64,000 bases of DNA from Octopus vulgaris (lineage: Eukaryota): the NCBI GenBank assembly GCA_951406725.2, contig OX597829.1, positions 20,522,001-20,586,000 on the forward strand. The letters are read 5' to 3'. Shown here piece by piece: positions 4,846-43,511 of the stretch. The notes beneath the pieces were generated by a model. It was not told where the DNA came from, did not search any database, and saw only the letters and a list, made by a program, of their open reading frames with translations. Position 1 is the first letter of the stretch. Each line of letters begins with the position of its first letter. The position numbers and the translations under genes were made by a program.

Positions 4846-4910
<65 letters not shown>

Positions 4911-18112: not shown

Positions 18113-19141
18113 ATGCCAATATCTGTGAAAATGCTTCGTCTAAAACGTTATTTATGTTTATTATTTTTCTTTTCTATATTTGCTTGCACACTTGTGTTCA
18201 TTGGGATGAAAATGCTCCAGAAAAATGAATTGAAATCTGAAATTTTAAGAAGTGAACAAAAGAGCTATTCTCAAAATCTTCAAGGTGTAATCAGCCAGTC
18301 AGTTGAAATTGCTAAAGATATTATGAAAAAACATGATTTAGTTTTATTTACTTTTATTAACAATGCTTATTTACCTTTTGTCTATAGTTGGTTGTGTAAC
18401 ACTGTTAATATGGGTATCCATGAGCAAATTCTCTTTATTACTACAGATGCTATATCAAAACAACAATTTGAGAAGGATTGGCCTAATGTCAAAGTTGTTG
18501 TGTTGCCCGAGACTTCACTAAATGGTAATCAAACTTATAGTAAAGTTGGTTATGTAAAACTAATGGTGAAACGTACAGAAATTTTAAATTCTTTATTGCA
18601 GAATGATATTGAAATTCTTTTATTTGAAGTTGACTGTCTTTAGGTTTCTAATCCTATTGATGAATGCAAAAAAATGGCATTGGAAAATGATCTGATAGTT
18701 ACATGTATTGCTGGCAGAAAAAGATCTATTGCTGGAGGTTTCATATATATGAAGCCTACAAAAGCTGTGAAAACTCTCTGGCAAGAACTGAATTCAAAGA
18801 CGAGACGTCTTGGCAAAGAAATTGATGGAAAAGATGATAATAAACTTATATCTGAAAGTAAAAATGACCAGGTATTCTTTACGGGACTTATTCGGAATAG
18901 ATTTGGTGGAATAAAATATGAAGTTCTTTAATGGGACAGATATATTGATGGAAAATGGTATGAAATGAAATTAGAAGATCGTCAGAAGAAACATGTTGTT
19001 ATTATTAACAATAACTGGGTAGCTGGAAATGCAAAAAAGTTAAAACGAGCCAAAAAATTTGGACATTGGTTTATAGATGACTCAATGAATTGTAAAATGG
19101 ATCAAGTTGACAGAATAGTTTACCGTGGGTTGTATGTGTAA
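18113..19141 (+). pseudogene. Paralogous glycosyltransferase copy with two in-frame stops (TAG 18641-18643, TAA 18929-18931)
   Basis: Same 1029-nt length and frame as 42483..43511, with no frameshifts. TAG replaces TGG(Trp); TAA sits opposite CCA(Pro). Confidence 0.85.
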
Positions 19142-20131
19142 TTTAAATCAGGGTTAAATATATTCTTTGGTTTCAACATCACATTTGTATTCATTTTTGG
19201 TTTCCTTCTAACATTTTTGGTTCTCATCAGCTGAACATTAGTACACCGGCATACCTGTAGTATATTTATATTTGAGATTTATTTAATCAGTAATTAAAAA
19301 TACATCAATATATACTCAAAACATATACAATAGGAATTTTGTTCAGAATATTAAGCAGGCATTCAGTTTCTGAAGCCATTGAAGAAGCTTCTCTGTAGTC
19401 ACTCAGTAGGTACCTAATATTCTTCAAATTTAACTTAGCGTCCTAAAAGTAATGGATAAATTGATCTGAGCATCTCTACATAGTAAGTAAAGAAAGCAAA
19501 CAACTAAAATACTCATGGATATTGCATTACCACAGAAACAAAAGAACAAATGAGTTGCATAAACAATACATTCTTGTTTAGGCCTACAATCTTTTCAGCA
19601 GCTCTCAATAAATTACAAAAAAAAAAAAATTACAAATCACTGCATATTTCTAGCATTTCATCAATAAACCAAATTCTTAATTACACGAAAACACTAAAAA
19701 TAAAAGACTATAAAAACAGGAATGAGACACAGTTGCTGTGGTAAACACCAACCTTCACAATCCCTACCATTTCATGTACAACTATCTCAAGTATATATGT
19801 ATATATGCACAAATGCGAAAACTCATTGACTTGCATATATATACATATGTGTGTGTTTGTGTGTGTGTGTCTCTGTGTATATGTTTGCATCAGTTTGTCG
19901 TGCTAGTCTATTTGAAACACATGTAGCTAATTAAATTGTTTACAATGCCTCATTATTCTCTGTATTTTCTCTCACTCTCACTCCCTGTATACATCTGTGT
20001 GTATACATGTGTGTGTATATGTGTGTGCATATATGTGTGTATATATATATATATACTTATCTGTATGTATGTATATGTTTATATGTATGTATGTGTATAT
20101 ATGTATATATGTATGTGTGTGTGTGTGTATG

Positions 20132-20166
<35 letters not shown>

Positions 20167-20234
20167 GTGTGTGTCTGTGTATGTATGTATATACATATAT
20201 TTATATATATATGTGTATATATATGTATGTATAT

Positions 20235-21058
20235 AATGTCGGCGTCACTTTCTCATCATGAATGATGTCCATATTGTTCATGAAGCAGAGATCCAGAATG
20301 TTATTTACCCTAATTGGTCTGAGTACTGCTTGCTCCATGAATAGGGCATTGGTGAGGTTGAGCATGAACTCCACCTGTGCTTGCTTGCAATGAGTCAATC
20401 CTTAGAGTATGTGACATTTGGGCCATTTGATGTTGTGTAAGTTGAAATCACCCATAAGAAATATGGTCATGTGGTGATCCAGATTCATGAGGATTTCTTT
20501 AATTCTTGTGAAGCAATCTTCAAACTTGGTTTGGAGCATCTGGTGGGCAATATGTATTGCATATATTATGTTGTCTTATGTATACAATTAGAGTGTCACA
20601 TACTGAATTTGAGTATGACAGTCACTCAGTATACAATTAGAGTGTCACATACTGAATTTGAGTATGACAGTAAGACCTGCAGTGTGAGGTCGACATGAAG
20701 GTATACAGCAACTCCACTATGACTCCTTTCCCTTCTGTCTGTTCATAGTCTGGCATATTTTGGTATGTGTACTTCTGCATCCTCTATATCAAGGCTGAGG
20801 TGAGTTTCCATGAGTGCTATGCATAGGGCTTGATTGCATGCAGTAAGATCTCTCAGGAAAGAAATTTTGCTTTTATTGTGATGCAAAAGGCCCCAATATA
20901 TAATAAAAGTATTTGTGTGATGACTGTACAGGCGTTAGGGGAGGCCATCCCGTGTCTGTTGACTGTGGTGGACAAGGTTCCTTGTTTGTGCTTGAAGTTG
21001 CCAGGTCAGCTGCTGCACAATCTTTTGTGCCATGTACAAAAAAGACTCTTGCTCAGTT
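20235..21058 (-). mobile_element. CR1/Jockey-like LINE AP-endonuclease fragment (mirror ~40618..41403)
   Basis: CIALMETHLS, GVAVY, MGDFNL, NNILDLCFMNN motifs in broken frames. Confidence 0.8.
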
Positions 21059-21059
21059 G

Positions 21060-22559
21060 CTGGCTAGGAAATCGTTAATTAGATATAATAATAAATTATG
21101 GGCTAGGAAGGATACTAGAGACTATTTTGATATACCTATGGGGGCACCAGATTCTGCACAGGCTACTGATTTAGTAGGTATTTTTTTATCAGAACTTCAA
21201 TTAGAAAAATTTAAGTAGGAGGGTGGTCTATATAGAGATGACCTTTTATTACTTACTAGGGATTGTACAAATAGAAAATTAGAATTATATAAAAAGAAAC
21301 TTTATAATTTCTTTAAAAGATATGGTTTAAGTATTACTATTTATAATGAGAACTATAATGTTAATTATTTAGATGTTAATTTTATTTAATAATGTTGTGA
21401 AACCCAACCATTCCATAAAATTAACGAAAATCTGAAATATATTCATTCTTATAGTAATCATCCACCTTCTGTTAAAGAATCGTTGATAAATAATGTAGGT
21501 AAAAGAATATCATTACTTGCTTATGATTTAGAGATTTTTAATAAACATGCACCTTGTTATAATAAAGCCCTGCATGATGCAGGATATAATAATAATATTA
21601 AATTTTTAATACTTGTAAACATAATTATAATTTGAAGGAGTATAATATAAATGATTTTTATAATGATAAACCTAATTATCTGAATTATGATAAATTTTAT
21701 TTAGGTATCTATCATCCTAATAATAATAGGTATTTTGATGATGTAAATAATACATTTAATATTGGAATGAAAAATAAAAATAAGATAAAATTTAATTCAA
21801 TTAATGAAGATAATAAATTTAATATTACAAAAAATATAATAATAATAATATAAAAATAAAATATGGTTAATCGTTCCTTTTGGGGTTCAGTTTAAAGTAA
21901 ATCTTATTAAAAGGATTTTAAATATAATTGAAATATTCATTATGGATAATAAAAAATATAACATTTTTTCTACTAATAATTTTGGAGTTGGGTATTCAAC
22001 TACTACTAATGTTGGTAATATTTCTTCATTAAATACATTTAAATTAAATAAATTCTACAAAGATATATTAAACATTGATTCCAATAATAATAATAAAGAC
22101 CAAGATATAATTTATTGTACATGTAGGGATAAAACTACATGTAAATTTAATAATTGTAATTTAGATAATGTAGTCTATAAGTGTATGGTAACTTTAATAG
22201 ATGATAAGAATTTGAATTATCATAATTTAAACACTATTTATATAGGGTCCACTTTGAATAAAATTAAATCTAGAGTAGCACAACATATGTATTCTTTTAG
22301 GAATAAAAATCTAATAAATTCAACAGGTCTCAGTAAATATATTTGGGACCTTAGATCTAGATCTATTAAATATGAATTAACTTGGGAGATTATTTGTAGG
22401 GCTAAATCATATTCTATATGGAGTAATTATTGTTCATTGTGTAATAATGAATTAAAAGAAATATTATTTAATAACAACTATGTGTTAGTAAACTCATTAG
22501 AGGAACGTAAAATTAAATGTAAACATCAATTAAATTACCTATATAATAGGTTTAGCTAA
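21060..22559 (+). mobile_element. Penelope-like element 3, very AT-rich, RT C-half + GIY-YIG, disrupted
   Basis: FDIPMGAPDSAQATDLVG, GLYRDD, YIHSYSNHPP, CTCR..C...C..NVVYKC..IYIGST..R..QH..LSKYIW..CSLC..CKH. Confidence 0.85.
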
Positions 22560-23478
22560 TAAATGATTATATAAATTGATTAAGATATATTAATTATAGT
22601 AATATATATTAATTTAAATATGATATATATATTTTACTTATTTATTATTTGAACTTTAAATTTATAGTAAAAAGTCATTTAAAATTAAATGCTAACATAA
22701 ATTTATTTATCTATATGATACGTTTAGCTTATTTTTCCGTATGTATAAAACCTTATTTCTTTTTATGTTATTTATTGTAGATATAATTTAGTAGTATTAG
22801 TGTATAATTTACTATATTATTATGTGTTATATTAATATATTTGAATAATTTTAAACTTAGATATTTCCTAATACATAAATGATTATTTATAATTTTATTA
22901 AGACCTATTAATTATAGTAATATAAATTAATTTAATATTATATGTATATTTTATGTAATAATTATTTGGTAATTAATTTATAGTAAATAGTCATTTATAG
23001 TTCTTTTGTTATTCTATTTTTCTTTCATTCATGAAGCTTAAATATTTTTCGTCTTTTTCATTAATAAATATTTTTCATCATTTTCATTGATAATATTATA
23101 TTTTTTTACACGTCTTCACGAGTTTAATTTCTTATAAACGCTAAGTAATGTTTTTTATTTAACAATATTATTTAACTTTTGAATTGTATTAAGTTTGATT
23201 ATTATTATGATTATTATTGTAGCTAAAATATTAATTTATATATAGTTACGATATGTATGTCTATTTATTTATTATGTTTTATGATTATTATTAATTTTAT
23301 AATGTGATTTAACGAATTATATAATTTAATTCGAGAATTAGTTTTGTAAGACAATATATTATTTAAAAGTTAGGTGGTCTATTTATTACATAATATTACA
23401 ATTAAGTAAATTAGTTTAATATTAATTGATATTTTGATCAACTGTATAATTGAATAAAATAATAAATCTATATATACT

Positions 23479-23479
23479 A

Positions 23480-23513
<34 letters not shown>

Positions 23514-26445
23514 GTTTAGGTCCGCTTTCCATGCTAGCATGGGTTAGATGGTTCAACTGGGGTCTGGGAAGCCCGAAGGCTGCACCAGGCCAGTCAAATC
23601 TGGCAGTGTTTCTACAGCTAGATGCCCTTCCTAATACCAACCACTCCGTGAGTGTAGTGGCCGCTTTTTACGTGCCACCGACACATGTGCCAGACGAGGA
23701 TGGCGAACGGCCACGCTCGGATGGTGCTTTTTATGTGCCACCGGCACGGAGGTCAGGTGAGGCTGGCAATGGCCACGATTGGATCGTGTTTGTTACATGC
23801 CACGGGCACAGAGGCCAGTCGATACGGCGCTTGGCTACGGCCACGTTCGGATGGTTCTCTTACATGCCACCGGCACTGGTATCACAACTACAAATTCCAT
23901 TGATGTTGATCGATTTCGATTTTCACTTGCCTCAACAGGTCTTCACAAGTAGAGTTTTGTGTCCCAAGAAGGAAGGTATGTATAGGTGGACTGACTACGT
24001 CCCAGGTAGAGGCCACGGGTTATGGCCTCACTTGTCCTGCCGGGTTTTCTCACGCACAGCATACTTCCAAAGGTCTCGGTCTCCGGTCATTTCCTCGGTG
24101 AGACTTAAAGTTCGAAGGTCGTGCTTCACCACCTCGTCCCAGGTTTTCCTGGGTCTACCTCTTCCACAGGTTCCCTGAACCACTTGGGTGTGGCACTTTT
24201 TCACACAACTATCTTCATCCAATTTTACCACGTGTCCATACCAGTGTAGAGGTCTCTCTTGCACACCATGTCTGATGCTTCTTAGGTCCAACTTTTCTCT
24301 CAAGGCACTTACACTGTGTCGGCTATGAACACTGACATTACACATCCATTGGAACATACTGGCTTCATTTCTTGCAAGCTTATGCATATCCTCAGCAGTC
24401 ACAGCCCATGTTTCACTGCCATGTAGCATGGCTGTTCGTACACATGCGTCATACAGTCTGCCTTTTACTCTGAGAGAGAGGCCTTTTGTTACCAGCAGAG
24501 GTAAGAGCTCTCTGAACTTTGCCCAGGCTATTCTTACTCTAGCAATTACACTTTCAGCACACCCACCCCTGCTACTGACTTGATCACTTAGGTAATGGAA
24601 ACTATCAACTATTTCTAGTTTTTCTCCCTGGAATGTGGCGGAGGATGATCTCTGCGCATTTTCAGTGTTTATTGCACCAGAGCATCTGCCATATACAAAA
24701 TGTATCTTCCCAGTTAGCCTTCCTTTGACATTGCTGCACCTCTTATGTGTCCATAGCTTACACTTGGTGCATCTTATAGAGTTCCTACCTACGCATTTTC
24801 TACAGATCGAGCAGGGCCATCTACCTGAAGGCGTTTGTGATTTGTCTACCTTCCTATTTATTAGGACTTTGGTTTTAGCTAGGTTGACTCTAAGGCATGT
24901 AGTGACGTCATTTTCCAGTGTGCGCACACGAAACGTCATTCTTGAGTGTGCGTGTGCGGGGCTGGAACCTTCTGGAAAGGCCTGAGGAAGTTCCCTCATG
25001 CACATGCGCTAGAGACTGGGGAAGAAAATTCCTTCGCGTTCCTTGTTAGCGTCGTTGACTTGAGAAACGGCTATTGAAGAGAAAGGACGTGTGAAACGTG
25101 TGATCAGCTATTCTCCTGTTCTAGACGCTTGGGATTTGACCTGGTCTGTTGCTGCTGAATTTGTTGTAAGAATCTTACAAATGTTAAAATTCAGCCTTGT
25201 TTCCAGAACCTACCAGTCAGGAACAAAACGCAACTTTAAAAATATATATGATTCTTTATTCTCTTATTTACAAATGAAGCACGTTGGTATATTGGTATCC
25301 ACTTGGTTAAATATAGCAAGGTTGAATTTTAACATTTGTAAGATTCTTACAACAAATTCAGCAGCAACAGAGCAGGTCAAATCCCAAGCGTCAGGAACAG
25401 GAGAATGGCTGATCACACGTTTCACACGTCCTTTCTCTTCAATAGCCGTTTCTCAAGTCAACGACGCTAACAAGGAACGCGAAAGAATTTTCTTCCCCAG
25501 TCTCTAGCGCATGTGCATGAGGGAACTTCCTCAGGCATTTCCAGAAGGTTCCAGCTCCGCACACGCACACTGAAGAATTACGTTCTGCCCACTCACACTG
25601 AGGAATTACGTTCCGCACACGCACACTGAAGAATGACGTTGCCTGTGCGCACACTGGAAAATAACGTCACTACAGGGCCCTTCGATTCTAATCCTTACTT
25701 CCACACCTGAAACTTCTCCTCCAGTTCTGATAGTGACTGAGCAATTAGAGCAAGGTCATCAGCATAGAGGAGCTCCCAGGGGCATTCTGTCTTGAATTCC
25801 TCCGTTATTGCCTGGAGGACTATGATAAATAGGAGGTGGCTGAGGACTGAGCCTTGGTGAACCCCTACCCCTACCCGGAATTCTTCACTGTACTTGTTGC
25901 CAACCCTCACCTTATTAACAGCGTCCCTGTACATGGCTCGCACAGCTCTCACTAACCATTCATCTATCCCTAGTTTCCTCATTGACCACCAGATAAGGGA
26001 TCGGGGCACCCTGTCAAAGGCTTTCTCCAAGTCAACGAAAGCCAGGTACAGAGTTTTATCTTTGGCTAGGTATTTCTCCTGCAGCTGTCTCACCAGAAAT
26101 ATGGCATTGGTGGTGCTTTTCCCTGGCATGAAACCGAACTGCATCTCGTCCAGGTTGACTCTCTCCCTAATCAGTTGGGCTATGACCCTTTCCGTAACCT
26201 TCGTTACCTGATCTAACAGCTTGATACCTCTGTAATTACTTGTATGTAGGGCGTCACCTTTACCGTTGTAGCAGTTGACTATTATGCTACTACACCAGTC
26301 ATTGGGTATGACTCCTTCGTGTATCACCTGGTTAACTATACGGGTGACTAGGCTATAGCCGACACTGCCAGATATTTTGAGCATCTCTGCAGTAATTCTT
26401 GATGGGCCTGGGGCTTTCCCTGTCTTCATGCTTCTAATTGCCTTA
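23479..26445 (-). mobile_element. RTE-clade LINE, 5'-truncated, with (GAT)n tail; interrupted by fold-back element
   Basis: ORFs 25695..26588 and 24028..25005: QFGFMPGKST, AFVDLEKAFDRV, GVHQGSVLS, LLYADD, PHD-like CSIC..C..C..H..C, RGRPRKTW; (CAT)n at 23479..23512. Confidence 0.92.
24898..25674. mobile_element. 777-bp fold-back element with ~300-bp inverted arms, derived from a Gypsy LTR; left arm only
   Basis: TGTAGTGACG...CGTCACTACA termini; arms 24898..25199 and 25317..25674; degenerate 4-5 bp TSD (aggca/gggcc); empty site at ~36790 in the right arm. Confidence 0.85.
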
Positions 26446-26462
26446 TGCTTCATGCTTCTAAT

Positions 26463-29300
26463 GGACGCCGAGGTGAAAATAAAAGATTTCACCATTGTTC
26501 GTGCGGATCGCACAGACCGAAATAAGGGAGGGACAGCCATCTTTATCCATGACTCCTTTTCACTTGATGCCAAGGACATATTTTCCAATGGCTATCGTGA
26601 ATCAGTATCACTATTCAGCAAGGCCAAGGACATAATCATTGTTGGTCTTTACAGGTCTCCCCAAGCACCTCTAAAGTGTTTTGAAGAGTGCCTTAGCAAA
26701 GTCAAGTCCTTCCTCCGGAAGTACCACTCCGGAAACATACTAGTGATGGGTGATTTTAACCCCCCTCATGTGAACTGGCCCACAAATACTCTGAAGTTAG
26801 GCAAATGCTCTACATCAGATAGAGCAGCAGCAGAACTGCTCTTTAATCTGATGTATGAATACTTCCTGACTCAGCTAGTGCTCGAACCAACGAGACAGAA
26901 TAAAATGACCTTGGATCTGGTATTGACCAATCACTCTAGCTTCGTTCACAGTATTTCAGTTGAAAAAACTCTCCTCTCAGACCACATGGTACTCTGCAAT
27001 TTTAATTCCCGACATATAAAAACCAAACCAGCCAATCCCACTCATTTGACAACATAAACTTCCACAAAGCGGACTGGGGAGCAATCAGAAAGGATCTGTC
27101 TTTCATCGACTGGTCTTTTACTTACAATTCCACCCATATTGAGACCGCATGGCAGCACTTTGAAAACATTGTCATCTATACATGCTCTAAACACGCTCCC
27201 ACGAAATCTACTAACACTAACAGTAACCGGCTCCCTAAAAAGAATAAAAGCACTCATCAGGCGCATCAAAAGACTCAACAAAAAAATCAACCAATTAAGA
27301 TATTCCCTCATACATCATCCACATTCAACAACAATGAAAAGGCTAGAGCTGGAAAAGCTTCATCTGCAGACCGACATGAAAACCTCCATTGAAAATCAAA
27401 GAGCTGTGGAGGAATAGTGGGTAATCAAAAGCATCAAACAGAACCCAAAGATGTTCTATTCTTATGCAAATAAGCATAGAACCACTGTCTCACCCATTGG
27501 GCCATTGATTGATGATAACGGCATTCCCCAACACGATGCTAAAGAAATGGCAGAAATATTGCAGAAACAATACTGTTCTGTCTATAGTGTTCCCACTGAT
27601 ATTGACGTAAGGGAAGCGAACGAAGTTGACTCCCAACATAAAATCTAAGACATAACCTTCACTGCCACTGACATCGTAGCAGCAATAAATGAGGTCAAAT
27701 ACTACTCTGCTGTAGGCCCTGATAGATTCCCCGCTAGTCTCCTGAAGGAATGTAGACACCAACTTGCAGTCCCTCTGACCAACCTCTGGAGAAATTCATT
27801 AGACGCAGGTTATATACCGAAATAGTTTCTATCCCAGTCGGTCATCCCGGTTTTCAAACAGGGAAACAGATCCCTCGCACTCAACTATCGCCCAATCTCA
27901 CTCACCTCCCACATCATTAAAGTGTTTGAAAGAGTGTTAAGATCAAGGATAGCTGACTTCCTGGAGACCCACAAACTCCTAAATGCAAATCAGCATGGCT
28001 TTCGCTGTGGCAGGGACTGTCTAACACAGCTCTTACACCACATTGAAGATGTACTCAAAGCCTTGGGAACAGGTTCGAACTCTGACGTCATATATCTTGA
28101 CTTCAGTAAAGCGTTCGACAGGGTAGACCATAATATCCTACTCTCAAAATTGGCAAATTTTGGAATCCGTGGAAAAGTTCTACACAGGATTAAGTATTTC
28201 CTGGCGAATAGAACACAACATGTTGTAGTTGATGGAGTCCACTCAAGCCCAGCAAAAGTCACCAGCGGTGTCCCCCAGGGGACTGTCTTGTGTCCGCTAC
28301 TCTTCATAATTTACATAAACGACCTTTCCAGTGTCGTACATTACTGCAAAGTGAAAATATTTGCTGATGACACTAAGCTCCAGCAAATCGTCAATGAAGA
28401 AGCAGACCGAACTCAACTCCAGTCTGATCTATATGCTGTGAATCAATGGGCAGACAGAAACAAAATGCAACTGAACGAGGGAAAATTTGAGCAGATGCAT
28501 TTTGGAAGAAATTCCTCACTGAAACAGCCATACTCTCTTCCTTCAGGGGAACCGCTCATAGCCTCTAACAATATCAGAGACCTAGGTGTAATTGTTGATG
28601 ACGATCTCAGTTGGAGTGCACACATCAACAAGAAGGTCGATATAGCTAGGATGAGTTCCTGGATCTTAAGAACTTTCCGGTCCAGAGAACAAGGTGCACG
28701 GCTACACCTTGAATATTGCTGCCCACTGTGGTCTCCCCATACAAGACAAAACATCTCGAGGATTGAGTCACCCCAGAGGGCACTCACTAAACGAATTGAA
28801 GGCATGGATGCTCTCGATTACTGGGATCGCCTTAAAGCCTTGAAACTTTACACTTTCCAGCCTCGCCGTGAGCGGTACATCATTTGTACGATGTGGAGAA
28901 TATACCGCCAACTTTGCCCAATCGACCTGAACATTAGCTTCAGGTTTCATCCAAGACTGGGACCACGGGCCATACGTCCCCTGCCCAATTCAAGATCACA
29001 GCATACATGTACACTGCAACATAATTTCTTTTCCTCAACAGGCCCTGCCCTATTTAACATTGTCCCGAGGGAGATCAAAGAGGAAAAGGATCCCATCAAT
29101 TTTAAACGGAGTCTGCATAGATTCCTTCAAAGAATACTAGATAAGCCACCCATAATTGGATACAACTCACCCAACAAGAACTCACTACTTGAATGGACCA
29201 TAAACAAAACTTGACTTAAACAGGATTCGAATAATCCTATCAGGTGGTGCTATTAAGTTAGACATGGCCTGGACCAATCTTTGGTCGAAACATATCTAAG
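26463..29300 (+). mobile_element. CR1/Jockey-like LINE ORF2 (APE + RT), 5'-truncated, disrupted
   Basis: GGTAIF, GLYRSP, MGDFN, LDLVLTN, SDH (APE); NQHGFR, YLDFSKAFDRVDH, SGVPQG, IFADDTK (RT). Confidence 0.92.
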
Positions 29301-30157
29301 TTTATAGTTCTTTTGTTATTCTATTTTTCTTTCATTCATGAAGCTTAAATATTTTTCGTCATTTTCATTGATAATTTTATTCTATTTTTTACACAACGTT
29401 TTCACGAGTTTAATTTCTTATAAACGCTAAGTAATGTTTTCTATTTAACTATTATTTAACTTTTGAATTGTATTAAGTTTGATTATTATTATGATTATTA
29501 TTGTAGCTAAAATATTAATTTATATATAATTTATTGATAATTATTAGTTACGATATATATATATCTATTTATTTATTATGTTTTATGATTATTATTAATT
29601 TTATAATGTGATTTAACGAATTATATAATTTAATTCGAGAATTAGTTTTGTAAGACAATATATTATTTAAAAGTTAGGTGGTCTATTTATTACATAATAT
29701 AACATTTACGTAAATTAGTTTAATATTAATTGATATTTTGGTCAACTATATAATTGAATAAAATAATAAATCTATATATACTACATCATCATCATCATCA
29801 TCATCGTTTAGGTCCGCTTTCCATGCTAGCATAGGTTGGACGGTTCAACTGGGGTCTGGGAAGCTCGAAGGCTGCACCAGGCCAGTCAGATCTGGCAGTG
29901 TTTCTACAGCCGGATGCCCTTCCTAATGCCAACCACTCCGTGAGTGTAGTGGGTGCTTTTTACGTGCCACCGACACAGGTGCCAGACGAGGCTGGCAAAC
30001 GGCCACGCTCGGATGGTGCTTTTTATGTGCCACCGGCACGGAGGCCAGGCGAGGCTGGCAATGGCCACGATCGGATGGAGTTTGTTACATGCAACGGGCA
30101 CAGAGGCCAGTCGATACGGCGCTGGCTACGGCCACGTTCGGATGGTTCTCTTACATG
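29301..30157 (+). repeat. Third copy of arm segment 22994..23866 (AT-rich Penelope flank + RTE 3' tail)
   Basis: Direct repeat that includes the same junction aatctatatatactacatcatcat. Confidence 0.9.
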
Positions 30158-30900
30158 TGTAACGGGAATTATTGCTTCTTGCACTTTTAGGGTGCAACTC
30201 GGGTGCATTCACAATTTCCGTTGCTTAAATTTCCAGATTCTACCAGTCAAAGAACACAAACGCAACAGTAAAAATATATATACTCTTTATTTTTCTTATA
30301 ACAGTAAGAAATAAGGTGGTATATTTGGTTCCACTTGGTATGGATGTGGCAAGGCTGAAACTTTAACGCTTGTAAGAATCTTACAAGTTCAGCAGCAACA
30401 GAGCTGGTCAAATATAGCGTCCTTAGAGAGCGGAGAAATTACACGTCTGCTACAATTTGGTGTGGGCAGCCTTCTGCCCGACTGCTACGTGTCTCTGTAC
30501 CCTTTCTGGTCAAGGTTTCACCTTCCCACGCCTCCTGTCAGCTAAATGCCACATCATCATTCCCTTCTTCTTATCTTCGCGCATGCGCGAGAGGGCGCTT
30601 CCCTTCTGCCTCACCAGAAGGCTCCAAACCCCGCACACGCGAACTTAAGTGGCGTTGCGCGCGCGCTGTTGGATAGCGTCACTACAAAGGCTCCCCCACA
30701 AGTGCGTAAGCACGAAACAAAATTCGTTGTAGTGACTTTAAAACTCAAGGTGGATACCAGATAACCAAAATAGCACACAATATAACAAATCAAGGCAGAA
30801 TTTACAATATAAACAAGAAATGCACCAAAAGGAAAAAGGAGAAAAAATACTCAAAATGAGCAAAGTTCAGTGAGTATTGAAACTGTCACAATTGAGAATG

Positions 30901-32350
30901 TCAAATATAAATAGTTTTGGAAAGTTTTTTCGGCCAGTGAACAGTTCTGCCTGACCTCGTAAAATAAGGTCTGTTCGAGGCAGGCTGCGACGACGAAGGT
31001 GGTGTTGCCGATGATGGTGTTGATAAAGGTGCATGTGTAAATAGTTGTGTTGTCAAAGGTGCATGTGTGAATGGTGGTGTTGTCAAAGGTGCATGTGAAA
31101 GTTCAACGATGGTTGTGGCAGTGGGGTTATTAAAAGATGTGGACACCTCAAAATATGCCCTTTTAAGACGATCTACGGAGACGGTCTCTGAACGACCGTT
31201 AATTTCAAGTTTGAATACTTTCGGCGTGCGAGAAATCACACGAAAAGGTCCTTTATAAGGAGAAACAAGAGGTCCTTTGACAGAATCATCACGAATAAAT
31301 ACATGCGTCCAAGAATCAAGATCTGATGGCACATTAAAAGGAGGATTTTGGTGTCGAGGGTCCATAGGAGGAAGGGCAGAAAAATATCTGCGTAGTCGAG
31401 CAACATAAGACTCTAAATTAAGAGACTGTGACTTGTCTGGCACCAACATCGTACCAGGCAATGCTAGTGTGGTACCATACAAGAGCTCAGCAGACGAAAA
31501 CCCAAGGTCTGCTTTAATCGCAGTCCGACATCCAAGCAGGACGATTGGTAGAAATTCAGTCCACGACTGTGGATTCGGCGAGGCACGCAACGCGGCCTTA
31601 AGTTGCCTGTGGAAACGCTCCACCATCCCATTAGAAGCGGGGTGGTAACTAGTGGTACGTATATGATGCATCCCCAGGATTCGTGATAACTCACGAAACA
31701 AGGCAGACTCGAATTGTCGACCACGATCAGTGGTTAAACTGGACGGTACACCATACCTAGAAATCCAATTAGACACGAAAGCTTTCGCAACAGTTTCAGC
31801 AGAAATGTCTGCTATTGGAATAGCTTCCGGCCAGCGTGAAAAGCGATCAATACAAGTTAAAATGTATGAGAACCCGCGACTCACAGGCCATGGTCCAACC
31901 AAATCAAAGTGGACATGGCGAAAACGGGCTTCAGGAGAAGAAAACTGTCCAAGTGGAGCACGAACGTGTCTATGGACTTTAGCACTCTGGCACCTCAAAC
32001 AAGAGCGTGCCCAAGAGGTAATTGATCGTCGCATATTGGGCCAGAAGAACCGAGCAGTAACGAGCTTTACTGTGGCAGAGATACCTGGATGTGACAGTGA
32101 ATGAAGAGCATCAAACACAGAACGTTGATGTTTCTCAGGTACTAATGGTCTAGGTGAACCGGTAGAGACGTCACAAAGAATAGAGCCTTCTGCTGAAGGG
32201 AGCGGAAGGTAGGCAAACTTACAGTTAACAAACTTAGGCGAAGTTAAATCCAACTCCTCTAAAGGTGGTTGATCCTGCGAAATAGCAGTTAAGTCAATTG
32301 CTGCAGGAGAGGAAATGGAATTGACAGGGAGTCTAGAGAGCATCTGCAGG
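30901..32350 (-). pseudogene. pol: Gypsy pol: integrase with 30-bp tandem repeats (HAPLTT..) in its tail
   Basis: [42 protein letters not shown]. Confidence 0.9.
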
Positions 32351-33082
32351 GACGTTCTCCCTCCCTGGCACATGCCTAATATCACTTGTAAATTGAGAAA
32401 TATAGTCCAGGTGACGGAAAGCACGAGGAGAGAGTTTATCCGTTTTAGAAGATAGTGCAAAGGTAAGGGGCTTGTGATCAGTATAAATCACAAACTCTCG
32501 TCCCTCGAGCTGGTGCTGAAAATGCCGAGCTGACAGATAGATCGCTAGTAACTCTCGATCAAAAGTACTATATCTGCGTTCAGCTGGCTTTAGCTGGCAA
32601 GAAAAGAAAGCCAAAGGTTTAACTTCACCCTCTACGGTGTGCTGCAAAACAGCGCCAATTGCAGACTCTGATGCGTCCACAGATAATGTAAGTGGAGCAT
32701 CAGGAGCCGGATGTGCTAAAACAGGGACTGAAGCTAGTTCCTTTTTAACTAACTCAAAGGCAGACAGTGCTTCAGCCGAAAGAGTAAGACGGGCGTCCTT
32801 TTTAGAATTGCCCTTTAGCATCTGCGTTAAAGGAAACAACTTGTCCGCACACCGATCTATGAAACGTCGATAGAAATTAACTATGCCCAAAAAATGGCGA
32901 AGTTGACGCAAAGAAGAAGGTGGTGCGATGCGCTGAATAGCATCGACTTTAGACGAGAGTGGTTTGATTCCTCTCGAATAAATATAATGACCGAGAAAAT
33001 TAAGAGATGGTTGCCCAAAAACACACTTGTCTGGATTAATGCGAACACCATAGTCGCGAAGACGCTGAAAAAGCTGAGACAA
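32333..33082 (-). pseudogene. pol: Gypsy pol: RT thumb + RNase H
   Basis: [41 protein letters not shown]. Confidence 0.9.
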
Positions 33083-34056
33083 GTGCAGGAGATGATTTTC
33101 ATGCGTATCACTTGCGTGAGAATATCATCGACATACGCGAAAACAAAATCAAGTCCACGAACAACTTCATCTATAAAACGTTGGAACGTACTAGTAGCGT
33201 TCCTCAAACCAAAACTCATAAACAAAAATTCGAAACAGCCAAAAGGAGTGGTAATTGCCGTTTTAGGAACATCGTCTGGGTTGACCGGTATTTGATGATA
33301 AGCACGTATAAGGTCAACCTTAGAAAAAATGGTACAGCCATGGAGATTTGCCGAAAAGTCGTTTAGAATCCTTATTGGATATTTGTCCGGAATCGTCACC
33401 GAATTTAGACGCCGATAATCTCCCACCGGGCGAAAATCTGTATCCCCTTTTCTAACTAAATGAAGGGGTGATGCCCATGGACTAGTGGATGGGCGTATCA
33501 GACCGAGCTGGAGCATATGCTCAAACTCAGCCCTAGCAGTTTTAAGTCGATCAGGTGAAAGACGCCGTGGACGCGAAAAAACAGGCGGTCCAGTTGTTGT
33601 TATAAAGTGTTGTGTCGAGTGTAATGGCTTAGCCACTTTAAAGGTAACATCAAATAGCTCTGGAAAAGAGGCCAAAAGAGAGTGAAAAACGTCTCCAGAT
33701 GTTGAAACAAAAAATGTCGGGCTAAGAGCTGAATTGGTAGATTCACTGGTCGGCGTGGAGAGTGTAGTCGAAGTATCGACTAGCCTCCGACGTCTGACAT
33801 CTACCAATAAATCAAAATTGCTTAGAAAATCCGCACCTAAAATAGGATGCTGAATGTCAGCAATGATAAAAACCCATTGAAAGTCTCGACGAAGATTAAT
33901 ATCAAGGCGTAACGAGATCTGACCGAATGTGGATATTGGTGACGAGTCAATAGCGTGCAATGTAACGTTAGATCGTTTTGGCCTGTCGGTTGTGAGACGC
34001 AAAGGCCAAATGCTGCAACAAGAACCAGTGTCCACCATGAAGTTTTTCTTCGACAC
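32881..34056 (-). pseudogene. pol: Gypsy pol: protease + RT N-part
   Basis: MVDTGS, ILGADFL, SPWASP, DYRRLN, YHQIP, FGLRNA, YVDD; frameshift near 33100. Confidence 0.9.
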
Positions 34057-34753
34057 TTGATCCTTGACGAAAAATGCACGATAACTAGAAAATGTTGTGG
34101 AGGAAGTTGACGTGCTTAAATTCTCCGAAGCTAGTTTAAAGGTGCATGGCTGTATGCACTTATGTGCTTTCTCTCCAAAATTGGAGTGATACCAACACAG
34201 TCCGGACTTTGACTGTGTGGCACGTGACGATGTACGGCTTCGACTCCGCGATTTTGAAAATCGCTTGCCATCGCGTCCATCCTTTTGGTGAGACTTTCTA
34301 TTTGTTTAGAAAGTCCCTCAATCGAAGCTGAAAAAGCTTGTGAGCAGGCACCAGCAGACCGTGATGTTAGAGATATTTTGTAGTTTTTTAAGTTTTAGAT
34401 GATTCTGTCAAAGGAAAGTCAAACGACAATGAATCAAAGCTGAACGGACGCAACAAGGAGAAAAGGAAAAACAAGACCAGCAATTGAATCAATAAAATTT
34501 TTTGTATGTGAAATTTACAAAAAAAAAGGGTTTTTTTTTGGGGGTTTTTTTTTGTACTGTGTGCACAGAGAATAAAAAAATTCTTTTCTTTTTTATTTTA
34601 CAAACCTTCGTCGCGTCTTAACCGAAAAAAAAAATTTTCTTTTTTTTTTTTTTACGTGCGTGTGCTAAGATGAAAATAGCTGAAAACTTTGAGGATGATG
34701 ACTGCGCAAATTGATCGTGGTTCAGACTAGGCAGAAACTGGTTTTGTTGAGTG

Positions 34754-34768
34754 TTCTCGGGGTCACCA
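34754..34768 (-). promoter_or_regulatory. Primer-binding site complementary to tRNA-Trp 3' end
   Basis: TGGTGACCCCGAGAA on the minus strand, 1 nt after the 5' LTR end. Confidence 0.8.
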
Positions 34769-35297
34769 CTGTAACGGGAATTATTGCTTCTTGCACTTTT
34801 AGGGTGCAACTCGGGTGCATTCACATTTCCGTTGCTTAAATTACCAGATTCTACCAGTCAAAGAACACAAACGCAACAGTAAAAATATATATACTCTTTA
34901 TTTTTCTTATAACAGTAAGAAATAAGGTGGTATATTTGGTTCCACTTGGTATGGATGTGGCAAGGCTGAAACTTTAACGCTTGTAAGAATCTTACAAGTT
35001 CAGCAGCAACAGAGCTGGTCAAATATAGCGTCCTTAGAGAGCGGAGAAATTACACGTCTGCTACAATTTGGTGTGGGCAGCCTTCTGCCCGACTGCTACG
35101 TGTCTCTGTACCCTTTCTGGTCAAGGTTTCACCTTCCCACGCCTCCTGTCAGCTAAATTCCACATCATCATTCCCTTCTTCTTATCTTCGCGCATGCGCG
35201 AGAGGGCGCTTCCCTTCTGCCTCACCAGAAGGCTCCAAACCCCGCACACGCGAACTTAAGTGGCGTTGCGCGCGCGCTGTTGGATAGCGTCACTACA

Positions 35298-35640
35298 AAG
35301 GCTCCCCCACAAGTGCGTAAGCACGAAACAAAATTCGTTGTAGTGACTTTAAAACTCAAGGTGGATACCAGATAACCAAAATAGCACACAATATAACAAA
35401 TCAAGGCAGAATTTACAATATAAACAAGAAATGCACCAAAAGGAAAAAGGAGAAAAAATACTCAAAATGAGCAAAGTTCAGTGAGTATTGAAACTGTCAC
35501 AATTGAGAATGTCAAATATAAATAGTTTTGGAAAGTTTTTTCGGCCAGTGAACAGTTCTGCCTGACCTCGTAAAATAAGGTCTGTTCGAGGCAGGCTGCG
35601 ACGACGAAGGTGGTGTTGCCGATGATGGTGTTGATAAAGG
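35298..35640 (-). mobile_element. Remnant of a second tandem Gypsy copy (PPT, 3' UTR and integrase tail) sharing the 34770..35297 LTR
   Basis: Identical by eye to 30687..31029. Confidence 0.9.
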
Positions 35641-38179
35641 ATAGAAAGACCGATTCTATGACACCCTATTACAGACTACCTCGTTGACAAATGACAGAGA
35701 CCTTCTCTTTGTGGCAGGGGACTTCAATGGACATGTTGGACGGCATGTCGGGGGCTTCCACGGCATACATGGAGACTACGGTTTTGGTTCTCGCAATGAG
35801 GAGGGAAGACAGTATGTGAGAGAGAACCGTGATGTGGTAAGAGAGAAATGTGTTCACATAGATGATGGTTCACTTGCACTAAATGAGGATGCAAAGAGAG
35901 AGGTTTGGAGATGCCACTATGAAAGGTTGCTGAATAAAGAAAATAAATGGGATAAAGAGAGTCTGCCGAATGTCGACCCAACAGAGGGACCAGCTATCCA
36001 AGTTGACAGTTCCTTGGTAGTTAAGGCAATTAGAAGCATGAAGACAGGGAAAACCCCAGGCCCATCAGGAATTACTGCAGAGATGCTCAAAATATCTGGC
36101 AGTGTCGGCTATAGCCTAGTCACCCGTATAGTTAACCAGGTGATACACGAAGGAGTCATACCCAATGACTGGTGTAGTAGCATAATGGTCAACTGCTACA
36201 AAGGTAAAGGTGACGCCCTACATACAAGTAATTACAGAGGTATCAAGCTGTTAGATCAGGTAACGAAGGTTACGGAAAGGGTCATAGCCCAACTGATTAG
36301 GGAGAGAGTCAACCTGGATGAGATACAGTTCGGTTTCATGCCAGGGAAAAGCACTACCAATGCCATATTTCTGGTGAGACAGCTGCAGGAGAAATACCTT
36401 GCCAAAGATAAAACTCTGTACCTGGCTTTCGTTGACTTGGAGAAAGCCTTTAACAGGGTGCCCCGATCCCTTATCTGGTGGTCAATGAGGAAACTAGGGA
36501 TAGATGAATGGTTAGTGAGAGCTGTGCGAGCCATGTACAGGGACGCTGTTAATAAGGTGAGGGTTGGCAACAAGTACAGTGAAGAATTCCGGGTAGAGGT
36601 AGGGGTTCACCAAGGCTCAGTCCTCAGCCAACTCCTATTTATCATAGTCCTCCAGGCAATAACAGAGGAATTCAAGACAGAATGCCCCTGGGAGCTCCTC
36701 TATGCTGATGACCTTGCACTAATTACTGAGTCACTATCAGAACTGGAGGAGAAGTTTCAGGTGTGGAAGCAAGGATTAGAATCGAAAGGCTTTAGAGTCA
36801 ACCTAGCTAAAACCAAAGTCCTAATAAATAGGAAGGTAGACAAATCACAAACGCCTTCAGGTAGATGGCCCTGCTCGATCTGTAGAAAAGGCGTAGTAGG
36901 AACTCTAGAAGATGCACCAAATGTAAGCTATGGACACATAAGAGGTGCAGCAATGTCAAAGGAAGGCTAACTGGGAAGATACTTTTTGTATGTGGCACAT
37001 GCTCTGGTGAAATAAACACTGAAAATGCGCAGATACCATCTTCCGCAACACTCCAGGGAGAAAACCTAGAAATAGTTGATAGTTTCCATTACCTAGGTGA
37101 TCAAGTCAGTAGCGGGAGCGGGTGTGCTGAAAGTGTAACTGCTAGAGTAAGAATAGCCTGGGCAAAGTTCAGAGAGCTCTTACCTCTGCTGGTAACAAGA
37201 GGCCTCTTGCTCAGAGTAAAAGGCAGACTGTATGACGCATGTGTACGAACAGCCATGCTACATGCCAGTGAAACATGGGCCGTGACTGCTGAGGATATGC
37301 GTAAGCTTGCAAGAAATGAAGCCAGTATGTTCCAATGGATGTGTAATGTCAGTGTTCATAGCCGACACAGTGTAAGTGCCTTGAGAGAAAAGTTGGACCT
37401 AAGAAGATCAGACATGGTGTGCAAGAGAGACCTCTACACTGGTATGGACACGTGGTAAAATTGGATGAAGATAGTTGTGTGAAAAAGTGCCACACCCAAG
37501 TGGTTCAGGGAACCTGTGGAAGAGGTAGACCCAGGAAAACCTGGGACGAGGTGGTGAAGCACGACCTTCGAACTTTAAGTCTCACCGAGGAAATGACCGG
37601 AGACCGAGACCTTTGGAAGTATGCTGTGCGTGAGAAAACCCGGCAGGACAAGTGAGGCCATAACCCGTGGCCTCTACTTGGGACGTAGTCAGTCCACCTA
37701 TACATACCTTCCTTCTTGGGACACAAAACTCTACTTGTGAAGACCTGTTGAGGCAAGTGAAAATCGAAATCGATCAACATCAATGGAATTTGTAGTTGTG
37801 ATACCAGTGCCGGTGGCATGTAAGAGAACCATCCGAACGTGGCCGTAGCCAGCGCCGTATCGACTGGCCTCTGTGCCCGTGGCATGTAACAAACACGATC
37901 CAATCGTGGCCATTGCCAGCCTCGCCTTACCTCCGTGCCGGTGGCACATAAAAAGCACCATCCGAGCGTGGCTGTTCGCCAGCCTCGTCTGGCACATGTG
38001 TCGGTGGCACGTAAAAAGCGCCCACTACACTCACGGAGTGGTTGGCATTAGGAAGGGCATCCAGCTGTAGAAACACTGCCAGATTTGACTGGCCTGGTGC
38101 AGCCTTCGGGCTTCCCAGACCCCAGTTGAACCGTCCAACCCATGCTAGCATGGAAAGCGGACGTTAAACGATGATGATG
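35641..38179 (+). mobile_element. RTE-clade LINE, right-arm copy with additional 5' sequence (APE remnant, internal deletion)
   Basis: ORF 35684..36970: AGDFNGHVG..GFGSRNEEG joined directly to RQYVRENRDVV, then RT; (GAT)n tail at ~38170. Confidence 0.92.
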
Positions 38180-39117: not shown

Positions 39118-40615
39118 GCTAAACCTATTATATAGGTAATTTAATTGATGTTTACATTTAATTTTACGTTCCTCTAATGAGTTTACTAACACATAGTTGT
39201 TATTAAATAATATTTCTTTTAATTCATTATTACACAATGAACAATAATTACTCCATATAGAATATGATTTAGCCCTACAAATAATCTCCCAAGTTAATTC
39301 ATATTTAATAGATCTAGATCTAAGGTCTCAAATATATTTACTGAGACCTGTTGAATTTATTAGATTTTTATTCCTAAAAGAATACATATGTTGTGCTACT
39401 CTAGATTTAATTTTATTCAAAGTGGACCCTATATAAATAGTGTTTAAATTATGATAATTCAAATTCTTATCATCTATTAAAGTTACCATACACTTATAGA
39501 CTACATTATCTAAATTACAATTATTAAATTTACATGTAGTTTTATCCCTACATGTACAATAAATTATATCTTGGTCTTTATTATTATTATTGGAATCAAT
39601 GTTTAATATATCTTTGTAGAATTTATTTAATTTAAATGTATTTAATGAAGAAATATTACCAACATTAGTAGTAGTTGAATACCCAACTCCAAAATTATTA
39701 GTAGAAAAAATGTTATATTTTTTATTATCCATAATGAATATTTCAATTATATTTAAAATCCTTTTAATAAGATTTACTTTAAACTGAACCCCAAAAGGAA
39801 CGATTAACCATATTTTATTTTTATATTATTATTATTATATTTTTTGTAATATTAAATTTATTATCTTCATTAATTGAATTAAATTTTATCTTATTTTTAT
39901 TTTTCATTCCAATATTAAATGTATTATTTACATCATCAAAATACCTATTATTATTAGGATGATAGATACCTAAATAAAATTTATCATAATTCAGATAATT
40001 AGGTTTATCATTATAAAAATCATTTATATTATACTCCTTCAAATTATAATTATGTTTACAAGTATTAAAGAATTTAATATTATTATTATATCCTGCATCA
40101 TGCAGGGCTTTATTATAACAAGGTGCATGTTTATTAAAAATCTCTAAATCATAAGCAAGTAATGATATTCTTTTACCTACATTATTTATCAACGATTCTT
40201 TAACAGAAGGTGGATGATTACTATAAGAATGAATATATTTCAGATTTTCGTTAATTTTATGGAATGGTTGGGTTTCACCCATTATTAAATAAAATTAACA
40301 TCTAAATAATTAACATTATAGTTCTCATTATAAATAGTAATACTTAAACCATATCTTTTAAAGAAATTATAAAGTTTCTTTTTATATAATTCTAATTTTC
40401 TATTTGTACAATCCCTAGTAAGTAATAAAAGCTCATCCCTATATAGACCACCCTCTAAATTAAAATTTTCTAATTGAAGTTCTGATAAAAAAATACCTAC
40501 TAAATCAGTAGCCTGTGCAGAATCTGGTGCCCCCATAGGTATATCAAAATAGTCTCTAGTATCCTTCCTAGCCCATAATTTATTATTATATCTAATTAAC
40601 GATTTCCTAGCCAGC
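39118..40615 (-). mobile_element. Penelope-like element 3, right-arm copy
   Basis: ORFs 40285..40722, 39821..40282 and 39328..39732; carries some stops/frameshifts different from the left copy. Confidence 0.85.
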
Positions 40616-41493
40616 AACTGAGCAAGAGTCTTTTTTGTACATGGCACAAAAGATTGTGCAGCAGCTGACCTGGCAACTTCAAGCACAAACAAGGAACCTT
40701 GTCCACCACAGTCAACAGACACGGGATGGCCTCCCCTAACGCCTGTACAGTCATCACACGAATACTTTTACTATATATTGGGGGCCTTTTGCATCACAAT
40801 AAAAGCAAAATTTCTTTCCTGAGAGATCTTACTGCATGCAATCAAGCCCTATGCATAGCACTCATGGAAACTCACCTCAGCCTTGATATAGAGGATGCAG
40901 AAGTACACATACCAAAATATGCCAGACTATGAACAGACAGAAGAGAAAGGAGTCATAGTGGAGTTGCTGTATACCTCCATGTCGACCTCACACCGCAGGT
41001 CTTACTGTCATACTCAAATTCAGTATGTGACACTCTAATTGTATACATAAGACAACATAATATAGTCATATGCAATACATATTGCCCACCAGATGCTCCA
41101 AACCACATAGTCAAGTTTGAAGATTGCTTCACAAGAATTAAAGAAATCCTCATGAATCTGGATCACCACATGACCATATTTCTTATGGGTGATTTCAACT
41201 TACACAACGTCAAATGGCCCAAAGGTCACATACTCTAAGGATTGACTCATTGCAAGCAAGCACAGGTGGAGTCCATGCTCAACCTCACCAATGCCCTATT
41301 CATGGAGCAAGCAGTACTCAGACCAATTAGGGTAAATAACATTCTGGATCTCTGCTTCATGAACAATATGGACATCATTCATGATGAGAAAGTGACGCCG
41401 ACATTATATACATATATATACACACATATACATATATATATACACACATATACATATATATATAAATATATGTATATACATACATACACACAG

Positions 41494-41526
<33 letters not shown>

Positions 41527-42482
41527 CATACACACAGACACACACACACAAATATATGCACATACATATACACACACACGTATACACACAGATGTATACA
41601 GGGAGTGAGAGTGAGAGAAAATACAGAGAATAATGAGGCATTGTAAACAATTTAATTAGCTACATGTGTTTCAAATAGACTAGCACGACAAACTGATGCA
41701 AACATATACACAGAGACACACACACACAAACACACACATATGTATATATATGCAAGTCAATGAGTTTTCGCATTTGTGCATATATACATATATACTTGAG
41801 ATAGTTGTACATGAAATGGTAGGGATTGTGAAGGTTGGTGTTTACCACAGCAACTGTGTCTCATTCCTGTTTTTATAGTCTTTTATTTTAGTGTTTTCGT
41901 GTAATTAAGAATTTGGTTTATTGATGAAATGCTAGAAATGGCAGTGATTTGTATTTTTATTTTTTTGTAATTTATTGAGAGTGCTGAAAAGATTGTAGGC
42001 CTAAACAAGAATGTATTGTTTATGCAACTCATTTTTCTTTTGTTTCTGTGGTAATGCAATATCCATGGGTATTTTAGTTGTTTGCTTTCTTTACTTACTA
42101 TGTAGAGATGCTCAGATCAATTTATCCATTACTTTTAGGACGCTAAGTTAAATTTGAAGAATATTAGGTACCTACTGAGTGACTACAGAGAAGCTTCTTC
42201 AATGGCTTCAGAAACTGAATGCCTGCTTAATATTCTGAACAAAATTCCTATTGTATATGTTTTGAGTATATATTGATGTATTTTTAATTACTGATTAAAT
42301 AAATCTCAAATATAAATATACTACATAAATATAAATATACTCTCTAAAAGAGAGTAAAAGAGGGTACAGGTATGCCGGTGTACTAATGTTCAGCTGATGA
42401 GAACCAAAAATGTTAGAAGGAAACCAAAAATGAATACAAATGTGATGTTGAAACCAAAGAATATATTTAACCCTGATTTAAA

Positions 42483-43511
42483 TTACACATACAACCCACG
42501 GTTAACTACTCTGTCAACTTGATCCATTTTACATTTCCTTGAGTTATCTATAAACCAATGTCCAAATTTTTTGGCTCGTTTTAACTTTCTTGAATTTCCA
42601 ACTACCCAGTTATTGTTAATAATAACAACATGTTTCTTCTGACGATCTTTTAATTTCATTCTATACCATTGTCCATCAATATATCTGTCAAATGGAAGAA
42701 CTCCATATTTTATTCCACCAAATCGTTTATTAATAAGTTTGTTCAAGTATGCCTGGTCATTTTTTCTTTGAGATACACGTTTATTACCACCTTTTCCTTC
42801 AATTTCTTTGCCAAGACGTCTCATCTTTGAATTCAGTTCTTGCCAGAGAGTTTTCACAGCTTTTGTAGGCTTCATATATATGAAACCTCCAGCAGCAGTA
42901 TTTTTTCTGCCAGCAACACGTGTAATTATCATATCATTTTTCAATGCTATTTTTTTGCATTCATCAATAGGATTAGAAACCCAAAGACAGTCAACTTCAA
43001 ATAAGAGCAATTCAATATCATTCTGCAATAAAGAATTTAAAATTTCTGTACGTTTCACCATTAGTTTTACATAACCAACTTTACTAAAAGTTTGAGCACC
43101 ATTTAGTGAAGTAATGGGCAACACAACAACTTTGACATTAGGCCAATCCTTCTCAAATTGTTGTTTTGATATAGCATCTGTAGTAATAAAGAGAATTTGC
43201 TCATGGATACCCATATTAACAGTGTTACACAACCAACTATAGACAAAAGGTAAATAAGCATTGTTAATAAAAGTAAATAAAACTAAATCATGTTTTTTCA
43301 TAATATCTTTAGCAATTTCAACTGACTGGCTGATTACACCTTCAAGATTTTGAGAATAGCTCTTTTGTTCACTTTTTAAAATTTGTGATTTCAATTCATT
43401 TTTCTGGAGCATTTTCATCCCAATGAACACAAGTGTGCAAGCAAATATAGAAAAGAAAAATAATAAACATAAATAACGTTTTAGACGAAGCATTTTCACA
43501 GATATTGGCAT
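42483..43511 (-). CDS. Type II membrane glycosyltransferase, nucleotide-diphospho-sugar transferase (PF03407/GT77-like) family, 342 aa, single coding exon
   Basis: Intact ORF with N-terminal TM (YLCLLFFFSIFACTLVFIGM). Family-like motifs: TFINNAY..F..SWLCN, LLFEVDCLW..NP (DxD position), GGFIYMKPT, NDQ, NNNWV.G. Polypyrimidine tract + CAG acceptor just upstream (exon starts 43563). Confidence 0.8.
   Translation of the reverse strand: MPISVKMLRLKRYLCLLFFFSIFACTLVFIGMKMLQKNELKSQILKSEQKSYSQNLEGVISQSVEIAKDIMKKHDLVLFTFINNAYLPFVYSWLCNTVNMGIHEQILFITTDAISKQQFEKDWPNVKVVVLPITSLNGAQTFSKVGYVKLMVKRTEILNSLLQNDIELLLFEVDCLWVSNPIDECKKIALKNDMIITRVAGRKNTAAGGFIYMKPTKAVKTLWQELNSKMRRLGKEIEGKGGNKRVSQRKNDQAYLNKLINKRFGGIKYGVLPFDRYIDGQWYRMKLKDRQKKHVVIINNNWVVGNSRKLKRAKKFGHWFIDNSRKCKMDQVDRVVNRGLYV

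Follow-up and report, generated by a model that had tools for sequence, protein, structure and literature searches.

Replacement-rich divergence between two GT77 glycosyltransferase copies in an inverted duplication of the Octopus vulgaris genome

The human red and green opsins are described as carrying a peak of coding divergence within homogenised non-coding DNA, with coding sequences that group by paralog across species (PMC3924837). The same combination is described for the ATP1A1 paralogs of Leptodactylus (bioRxiv 2020.08.04.234435). This evolutionary pattern, already known from those systems, is reported here for a new case, a pair of GT77 glycosyltransferase genes in a 64,000-nucleotide stretch of the Octopus vulgaris genome (assembly GCA_951406725.2, contig OX597829.1, positions 20,522,001 to 20,586,000 of the forward strand; hereafter the window). 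The two genes lie in opposite arms of an inverted duplication, their coding divergence peaks at 9.1% against 0.55% in the flanks, and their coding sequences group by class across species.

Described members of the same Pfam family include RGXT1 and RGXT2 of Arabidopsis, which transfer xylose from UDP-xylose to L-fucose (PMC2793385), and Dictyostelium AgtA, a GT77 alpha-3-galactosyltransferase (PMC8724618). The xylosyltransferase names of the Octopus sinensis copies have been carried over from RGXT by annotation, and such an activity of the mollusc proteins would be a prediction from the name. No description of an octopus GT77 cluster was found in the open-licence literature, and neither "glycosyltransferase" nor "transferase" occurs in the main text of the paper on the O. 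vulgaris genome. The locus adds animal GT77 members with a strong selection signal, in a much-studied octopus.

Coding divergence, flanks and paralog classes

The two copies, named LEFT (18113-19141, plus strand) and RIGHT (43511-42483, minus strand), are convergent frames of 342 codons each that align without gaps; residue numbers below refer to this frame. RIGHT is intact, and its residues 34-342 are identical to the database protein P0063. LEFT has no frameshift and is identical to P0058 over residues 1-176, but is interrupted by two stops: TAG at codon 177 (18641-18643, plus strand), where Trp is invariant in an alignment of 62 sequences, and TAA at codon 273 (18929-18931, plus strand), where Pro is found in all eight remaining copies from O. 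vulgaris and O. sinensis. Counting the stops, 46 of the 342 residues differ, in agreement with a sequence-only reading made beforehand. At the nucleotide level there are 62 differences in 49 codons, only three of which are silent-only. The concentration in the C-terminal half seen in that reading also holds, since 58 of the 62 differences fall from codon 133 onward, within an island spanning codons 133-337 (18509-19121 on the plus strand; 43115-42503 in RIGHT). Alignment likewise bore out the identity of residues 58-132 and the run of 11 nucleotide differences in nine codons at 18674-18730, every one a replacement.

With tandem repeats left out, the two arms show 86 differences over 15,677 sites upstream of the genes (0.55%) and 2 over 474 sites in the first 500 bp downstream, as compared to 58 over 635 sites (9.1%) from codon 133 onward (Fisher p=6e-44 vs the flanks). 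No 635-site window outside the coding sequence holds more than 11 differences, apart from the retrotransposon region beyond 22.9 kb, with which the maximum rises to 29. The flanks had been read as near-identical, which is correct for substitutions but not for indels near the gene: a 187-bp intron segment (17809-17995) is present in the left arm only, and an insertion of ∼40 bp in the 3′ flank of RIGHT (42326-42364) is absent from the left. Silent divergence in codons 133-342 (pS 0.025) is likewise higher than in the flanks, although the significance is borderline (p=0.04-0.07).

The earlier suggestion that replacements are in excess was supported by Nei-Gojobori counting with the two stop codons excluded. 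Between LEFT and RIGHT it finds 54.7 replacement differences as opposed to 4.3 silent ones, which corresponds to a dN/dS of 3.4 (one-sided p=0.002); the test still gives p=0.02 when all ambiguous paths are taken as silent. The excess is confined to the part with the island: dN/dS is 4.5 in codons 133-342 (pN 0.105), whereas codons 1-132 show none (three replacement differences and one silent). Among the 37 codons with a single hit, only 3 changed silently (p=0.004-0.03), and 2 of 100 fourfold sites differ. With coding divergence well above that of the flanks, the signal is real and strong, in a poorly known animal enzyme family. Gene conversion can reduce the silent count, but would still need selection to shield the replacements.

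Of 1289 candidates from a database search, 57 were homologs; those with a named source come from molluscs and one annelid. The cluster comprises at least five copies in O. vulgaris (including P0058 and P0063) and four in O. sinensis, which share one contig; the expectation that further paralogs exist was therefore correct. In a protein-level tree of residues 133-342 from nine copies, class A consists of LEFT, P0001, P0059 and P0060, and class B of RIGHT, P0002, P0061, P0062 and P0003. Class B, with RIGHT inside it, has full support (100/100), class A is weakly resolved, and LEFT falls together with P0001 and P0060; a clade of LEFT plus RIGHT is rejected (p-AU 0.0004). A tree of residues 34-132 gave no resolution among the octopus copies. 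Over residues 188-342, LEFT differs from the O. sinensis protein P0060 at 7 of 154 positions, vs 37 of 154 from RIGHT. Both classes are found in O. vulgaris and in O. sinensis, and are thus older than the separation of these species, for which a date of 2.5 million years is reported (PMC10700109). The arms, on the other hand, are closer to each other than two alleles usually are, as the heterozygosity of O. vulgaris is given as 1.22% (PMC10700109). The fragment P0067 has the class-A residue at six of nine diagnostic sites and the class-B residue at one, so class A looks ancestral-like and class B derived. A metagenome scan for a related locus gave 39 pattern matches, none of them confirmed, and a search for shorter homologs gave two matches among 31 candidates, neither of them LEFT- or RIGHT-like.

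Taking as private a residue that is not found in the other eight copies, the 46 differences comprise 14 class markers, 20 RIGHT-private and 7 LEFT-private changes (both stops included), while the remaining five (249, 257, 261, 262 and 304) fall in none of these groups. Pseudogene decay explains only the 7 that are private to LEFT, so the sequence-only reading was right to find it insufficient. The catalytic part of RIGHT has a net charge of +26, compared to +7 to +20 for the eight other copies; among its 19 private changes in this part, 11 raise the charge and one lowers it (P ∼0.0004 against a single-base null). The charge shift noted earlier is therefore real, but it is mostly a basic gain in the intact RIGHT copy and not a change in LEFT. 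LEFT itself is a mosaic. It is class A from residue 133 on and has the class-A residue E43, yet D75, F81, V98 and K217 are as in RIGHT. I246 and T257 join LEFT with P0001 and P0060, I98 and N217 join P0001, P0059 and P0060 without LEFT, and R261 and N262 are common to LEFT and P0060 but not P0001. No single tree fits all of these sites.

Four of 24 listed public sequence runs were compared over 17500-19900, all of them as unphased contigs, and letter-level matches are among those listed. Contigs drop minor variants, which makes the absence of a letter weak evidence, and contig depth was not taken as copy number. X1, X2 and X17 cover the gene; X12, with a library guessed to be RNA, does not. 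Two X1 contigs show 9 differences, and 13 differences plus two gaps, over 18498-18825, the counts expected of RIGHT, and the RIGHT-private letters at 18698, 18704 and 18707 are among the X1 letters listed. X2 contains an intact class-A piece resembling P0001, and class-A contigs occur in both X1 and X2, so that both classes are found in independent runs. Flank-reaching contigs are close to the window sequence (5/238, 1/220 and 1/318 differences), so that little divergence in the flanks may be common to the entire cluster. The 187-bp intron segment is also present in X1 and X2, and the X1 and X2 contigs have a 43-letter insertion at the position of the ∼40-bp insertion, which is absent from the X17 contig. 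One X1 contig (record 1, 17761-18526) represents a further copy type in which the 187-bp segment is joined to class-B coding letters and the first ATG is ATA at 18115. X17 (one study, guessed RNA, organism C) has pieces over 18064-19831 in which letters of both classes occur, and the intron bins 17824-17985 are uncovered; it was not counted as expression.

Predicted fold and placement of the replacements

RIGHT matches PF03407 (Nucleotid_trans, GT77) with 83.8 bits against a cut-off of 22, over residues 102-312 and model positions 2-207 of 208. This was the sole family found in a Pfam scan of the gene, with no match to GT6. The predicted structure of RIGHT (pLDDT 90.5) has a GT-A fold with 6mw8 as its best structural match (Z 15.0, rmsd 3.5, 212 residues aligned). 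Foldseek matches include glycogenin and the ABO enzymes GTA and GTB (E ∼3e-6), and GTB aligns with Z 12.8 and rmsd 3.4 over 187 residues. We take these closest shapes to be GT8-type and GT6 enzymes. No relative was found in the PDB by sequence search (best E 0.42) or by profile search (0 matches). A hydrophobic stretch at about residues 13-31 lies inside a predicted helix (residues 3-51), and this N-terminal helix is a candidate type II membrane anchor, probably in the Golgi.

The motifs E172-V-D174 and D252-Q253 are (nearly) invariant in the 62 sequences and stand at positions that follow the motif order of the described GT-A core (bioRxiv 2019.12.31.891697), the first being an ExD and not a DxD. 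On the model, E172-V-D174 would be equivalent to the DxD motif, A207-G209 to the G-loop and N251-Q253 to the xED motif, and all three are the same in LEFT and RIGHT. The differences between the copies are unevenly spread around them: 0/56 in residues 75-130, 1/43 in 145-187, 9/19 in 188-206, 7/14 in 237-250, 0/3 in NDQ itself and 7/9 in 254-262. The segment 188-206 precedes the putative G-loop, and 237-250 and 254-262 flank NDQ, beside the putative xED helix. The likely hypervariable segments hold fewer differences (3/14, 5/34 and 8/39).

Some features of this region vary among the copies. The sole N-glycosylation sequon (N139-Q-T) is kept in LEFT (18527-18535) and lost in RIGHT (43097-43089), and P0002 and P0061 have D139 at this position. 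These two O. vulgaris class-B proteins show a burst of changes of their own at residues 139-166, with 10/54 differences from LEFT in 133-187; the burst covers the helix ahead of the DxD-like motif and residues leading up to that helix. P0002, P0061 and P0062 have Asn in place of the conserved G209.

Competing explanations

The best reading in our judgement, and one that we find somewhat probable, is that selection acted on substrate specificity while conversion homogenised the flanks. The genes encode GT77/PF03407 glycosyltransferases of predicted GT-A fold, probably located in the Golgi. In the lineage of O. vulgaris and O. sinensis the gene was amplified to a cluster, with classes A and B splitting before speciation, as the protein-level evidence shows. 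Selection would have driven replacements around the donor- and acceptor-binding surfaces with the catalytic motifs fixed; the excess itself is observed, and the placement of the sites points to these roles. The palindrome of the window holds one copy of each class. Arm-to-arm conversion would keep intron, stem and flanks alike and leave the patchwork in LEFT, while selection would have barred homogenisation of the catalytic part. RIGHT would then have gained its ∼20 changes and a strongly basic catalytic domain, most likely tuned to an acceptor of more anionic character, for example a sulfated glycan. LEFT is a recent null in this assembly. More speculatively, the selective agent may have been a parasite, a microbe or a gamete reading surface glycans. 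The sequence-only reading had proposed diversifying selection with homogenised flanks, or conversion from a third paralog. The replacement excess and the paralogs agree with this, but the coding divergence, with its two classes, is older than the flanks suggest.

Several points weigh against this reading. The dN/dS test depends on four to six silent differences only, and the ratio above 1 holds for the entire path between LEFT and RIGHT, not for the RIGHT branch alone. The differing sites are on average less conserved in distant relatives (0.43 vs 0.60), as tolerant surface sites would be too. The motifs were placed by secondary-structure order and not by superposition, the segment limits were set after the data had been viewed, and the charge test was likewise chosen after viewing, with a null built on LEFT codons. 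The class grouping across species rests on proteins, and the flank comparison covers the two window arms. None of the seven LEFT-private residues, the stops among them, is seen in the contigs of the three covering runs (X1, X2 and X17), where other residues stand in their place at full depth. The LEFT null may accordingly be private to one animal, dropped from contigs, or an assembly error. Finally, one long conversion tract would also explain most of LEFT.

This last point is the core of the strongest alternative, which we regard as possible but less likely: a young inverted duplication of a class-B gene, in which LEFT was overwritten once by a class-A paralog in a tract that begins around codon 99-133 and reaches the 3′ flank, the selection having acted earlier, among paralogs and not between these two arms. 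It fits the single block formed by the island and the make-up of LEFT, which is class-B-like at residues 75, 81 and 98 but shows 0/54 differences from class A in 133-187. A possible donor is at hand in the intact class-A gene P0001 of O. vulgaris, or in the class-A contigs of X1 and X2, and the arm divergence lies below the heterozygosity of the species. A single overwrite nevertheless leaves three features that call for extra events: the class-A residue E43, K217 within the tract, and R261/N262, found in LEFT and P0060 but not in P0001. Selection is required under this alternative as well, because the donor and recipient classes still differ by only ∼2.5% at silent sites. It is a close rival of the best reading, and both need past positive selection in the family.

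An assembly effect is unlikely. The arms could be two haplotypes joined in inverted orientation, or LEFT a polishing chimera, in which case the copies would be alleles or the stops errors. The missing LEFT-private letters and an arm divergence within the heterozygosity range would agree with this. A published O. vulgaris assembly, which may or may not be the source of the window, is described as based on Nanopore data with short-read polishing (PMC10700109). Against it, the window has no N letters and a unique spacer of 9.6 kb, LEFT is free of frameshifts and has R261/N262 in common with a paralog from O. sinensis, both classes are present in O. sinensis proteins and in independent runs, and the absence of letters from contigs weighs little. 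Least probable is relaxed constraint or a local mutational process with nothing adaptive (pseudogene decay, or copy-back of A-to-I edited RNA): the differing sites are the less conserved ones and LEFT is a null, but relaxation predicts a dN/dS near 1 and not 3-4, 34 of the 46 differences either mark the classes or are private to the intact copy, the intron is kept, and RNA editing as source of the differences was ruled out by A/G changes that are balanced in direction (23/62, 12 and 11) and by an excess of transversions in coding sequence vs flanks (32/62 vs 59/167, p=0.03).

Selection on substrate specificity, as the preferred reading, could be extended to a histo-blood-group-like system in octopus, where GT77 classes of differing donor or acceptor specificity, together with nulls varying between animals, make surface glycans specific to the individual and the species, either in an arms race against a parasite that reads glycans or in gamete recognition. 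We consider this extension rather doubtful. If it is true that nulls vary between animals, the locus would be a testable candidate for variation in susceptibility to parasites or in fertilisation that is based on glycans, in an octopus relevant to aquaculture. As background from other loci, oyster glycans are reported to include sulfated and blood-group-A forms that are bound by galectins in parasite infection (PMC8699351), and in a clam, a gene annotated in the same way is one of several within a quantitative trait locus (QTL) interval for Perkinsus resistance (PMC13504780).

Window layout and comparison with known systems

The left arm of the inverted duplication (1-26445) extends past the window start and matches the right arm (36022-61782) in megablast blocks of 92.6-99.4% identity, each arm being ∼25 kb long. 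A putative upstream exon of the LEFT gene (14959-15066, plus strand; GT at 15067) was identified by a tblastn match to the N-terminus of the O. sinensis model XP_029648611 (P0059), and its counterpart for RIGHT lies at 46414-46521 (minus strand), with exon boundaries taken from the sequence. A splice acceptor AG behind a pyrimidine tract is found at 18059-18060 (plus strand), so that the coding exon would run from 18061 (43563 for RIGHT), where the P0059 match also begins. In the intron, 9 arm-to-arm substitutions within 97 bp (16298-16394) form a small second divergence patch. Both arms also contain a long frame that is open from stop to stop (4787-6739, 650 aa, and 55100-57010, 636 aa). The left-arm frame gave no Pfam match, and we presume both to be Penelope-type retroelements.

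The unique spacer between the arms (26446-36021) consists of retroelement pieces: a reverse transcriptase (RT) open reading frame (ORF) at 27826-29214 (minus strand; ORF and Pfam scan), a retroelement fragment at 29301-30157, a long terminal repeat (LTR) element at 30158-35640 (minus strand) and the start of an RT ORF at 35645 (plus strand). The 872-bp repeats of the LTR retrotransposon are 99.66% identical, which indicates a young element. The repeat ending at 35640 adjoins another retroelement without target-site duplication, and this suggests a rearrangement junction in the spacer. An insertion of ∼783 bp in the left arm only (24894-25676) has 62-bp terminal inverted repeats that are 93.5% alike and is presumably MITE-like; within it, a part of 189 bp is similar to both LTRs of the spacer element at 30158-35640 (79%). 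In the retrotransposon adjoining the spacer (23000-26445) the arms differ by 1.4-4.6% per 500 bp, above the rest of the arms, as if it were older or had been converted from other copies.

Among glycosyltransferases, the rabbit Sec1/Fut2/Fut1 genes are described as linked paralogs with gene conversion and an inactive copy, associated with glycan diversity and with a pathogen (PMC4398370). They belong to another enzyme family, and there homogenisation and a dominant-negative inactive protein are stressed (PMC4398370). ABO, a GT6 enzyme, has the GT-A fold in common with the octopus gene, and its G-loop residues are reported to help bind the donor (bioRxiv 2019.12.31.891697); the octopus class markers 204-206 stand just before the putative G-loop. 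ABO and the octopus gene have 12-14% identity and belong to different Pfam families, and the octopus forms are paralogs in the assembly. The ABO forms, in contrast, are alleles of one locus. The RHCE/RHD model is reportedly a further example, cited alongside the opsins. Compared to the opsins and ATP1A1, the octopus peak is broad (∼200 codons), the cluster has at least five copies, one partner is a null, and functional divergence is predicted. The cluster offers natural, near-identical enzyme pairs with few differences, beside the predicted active site, on which specificity could be mapped.

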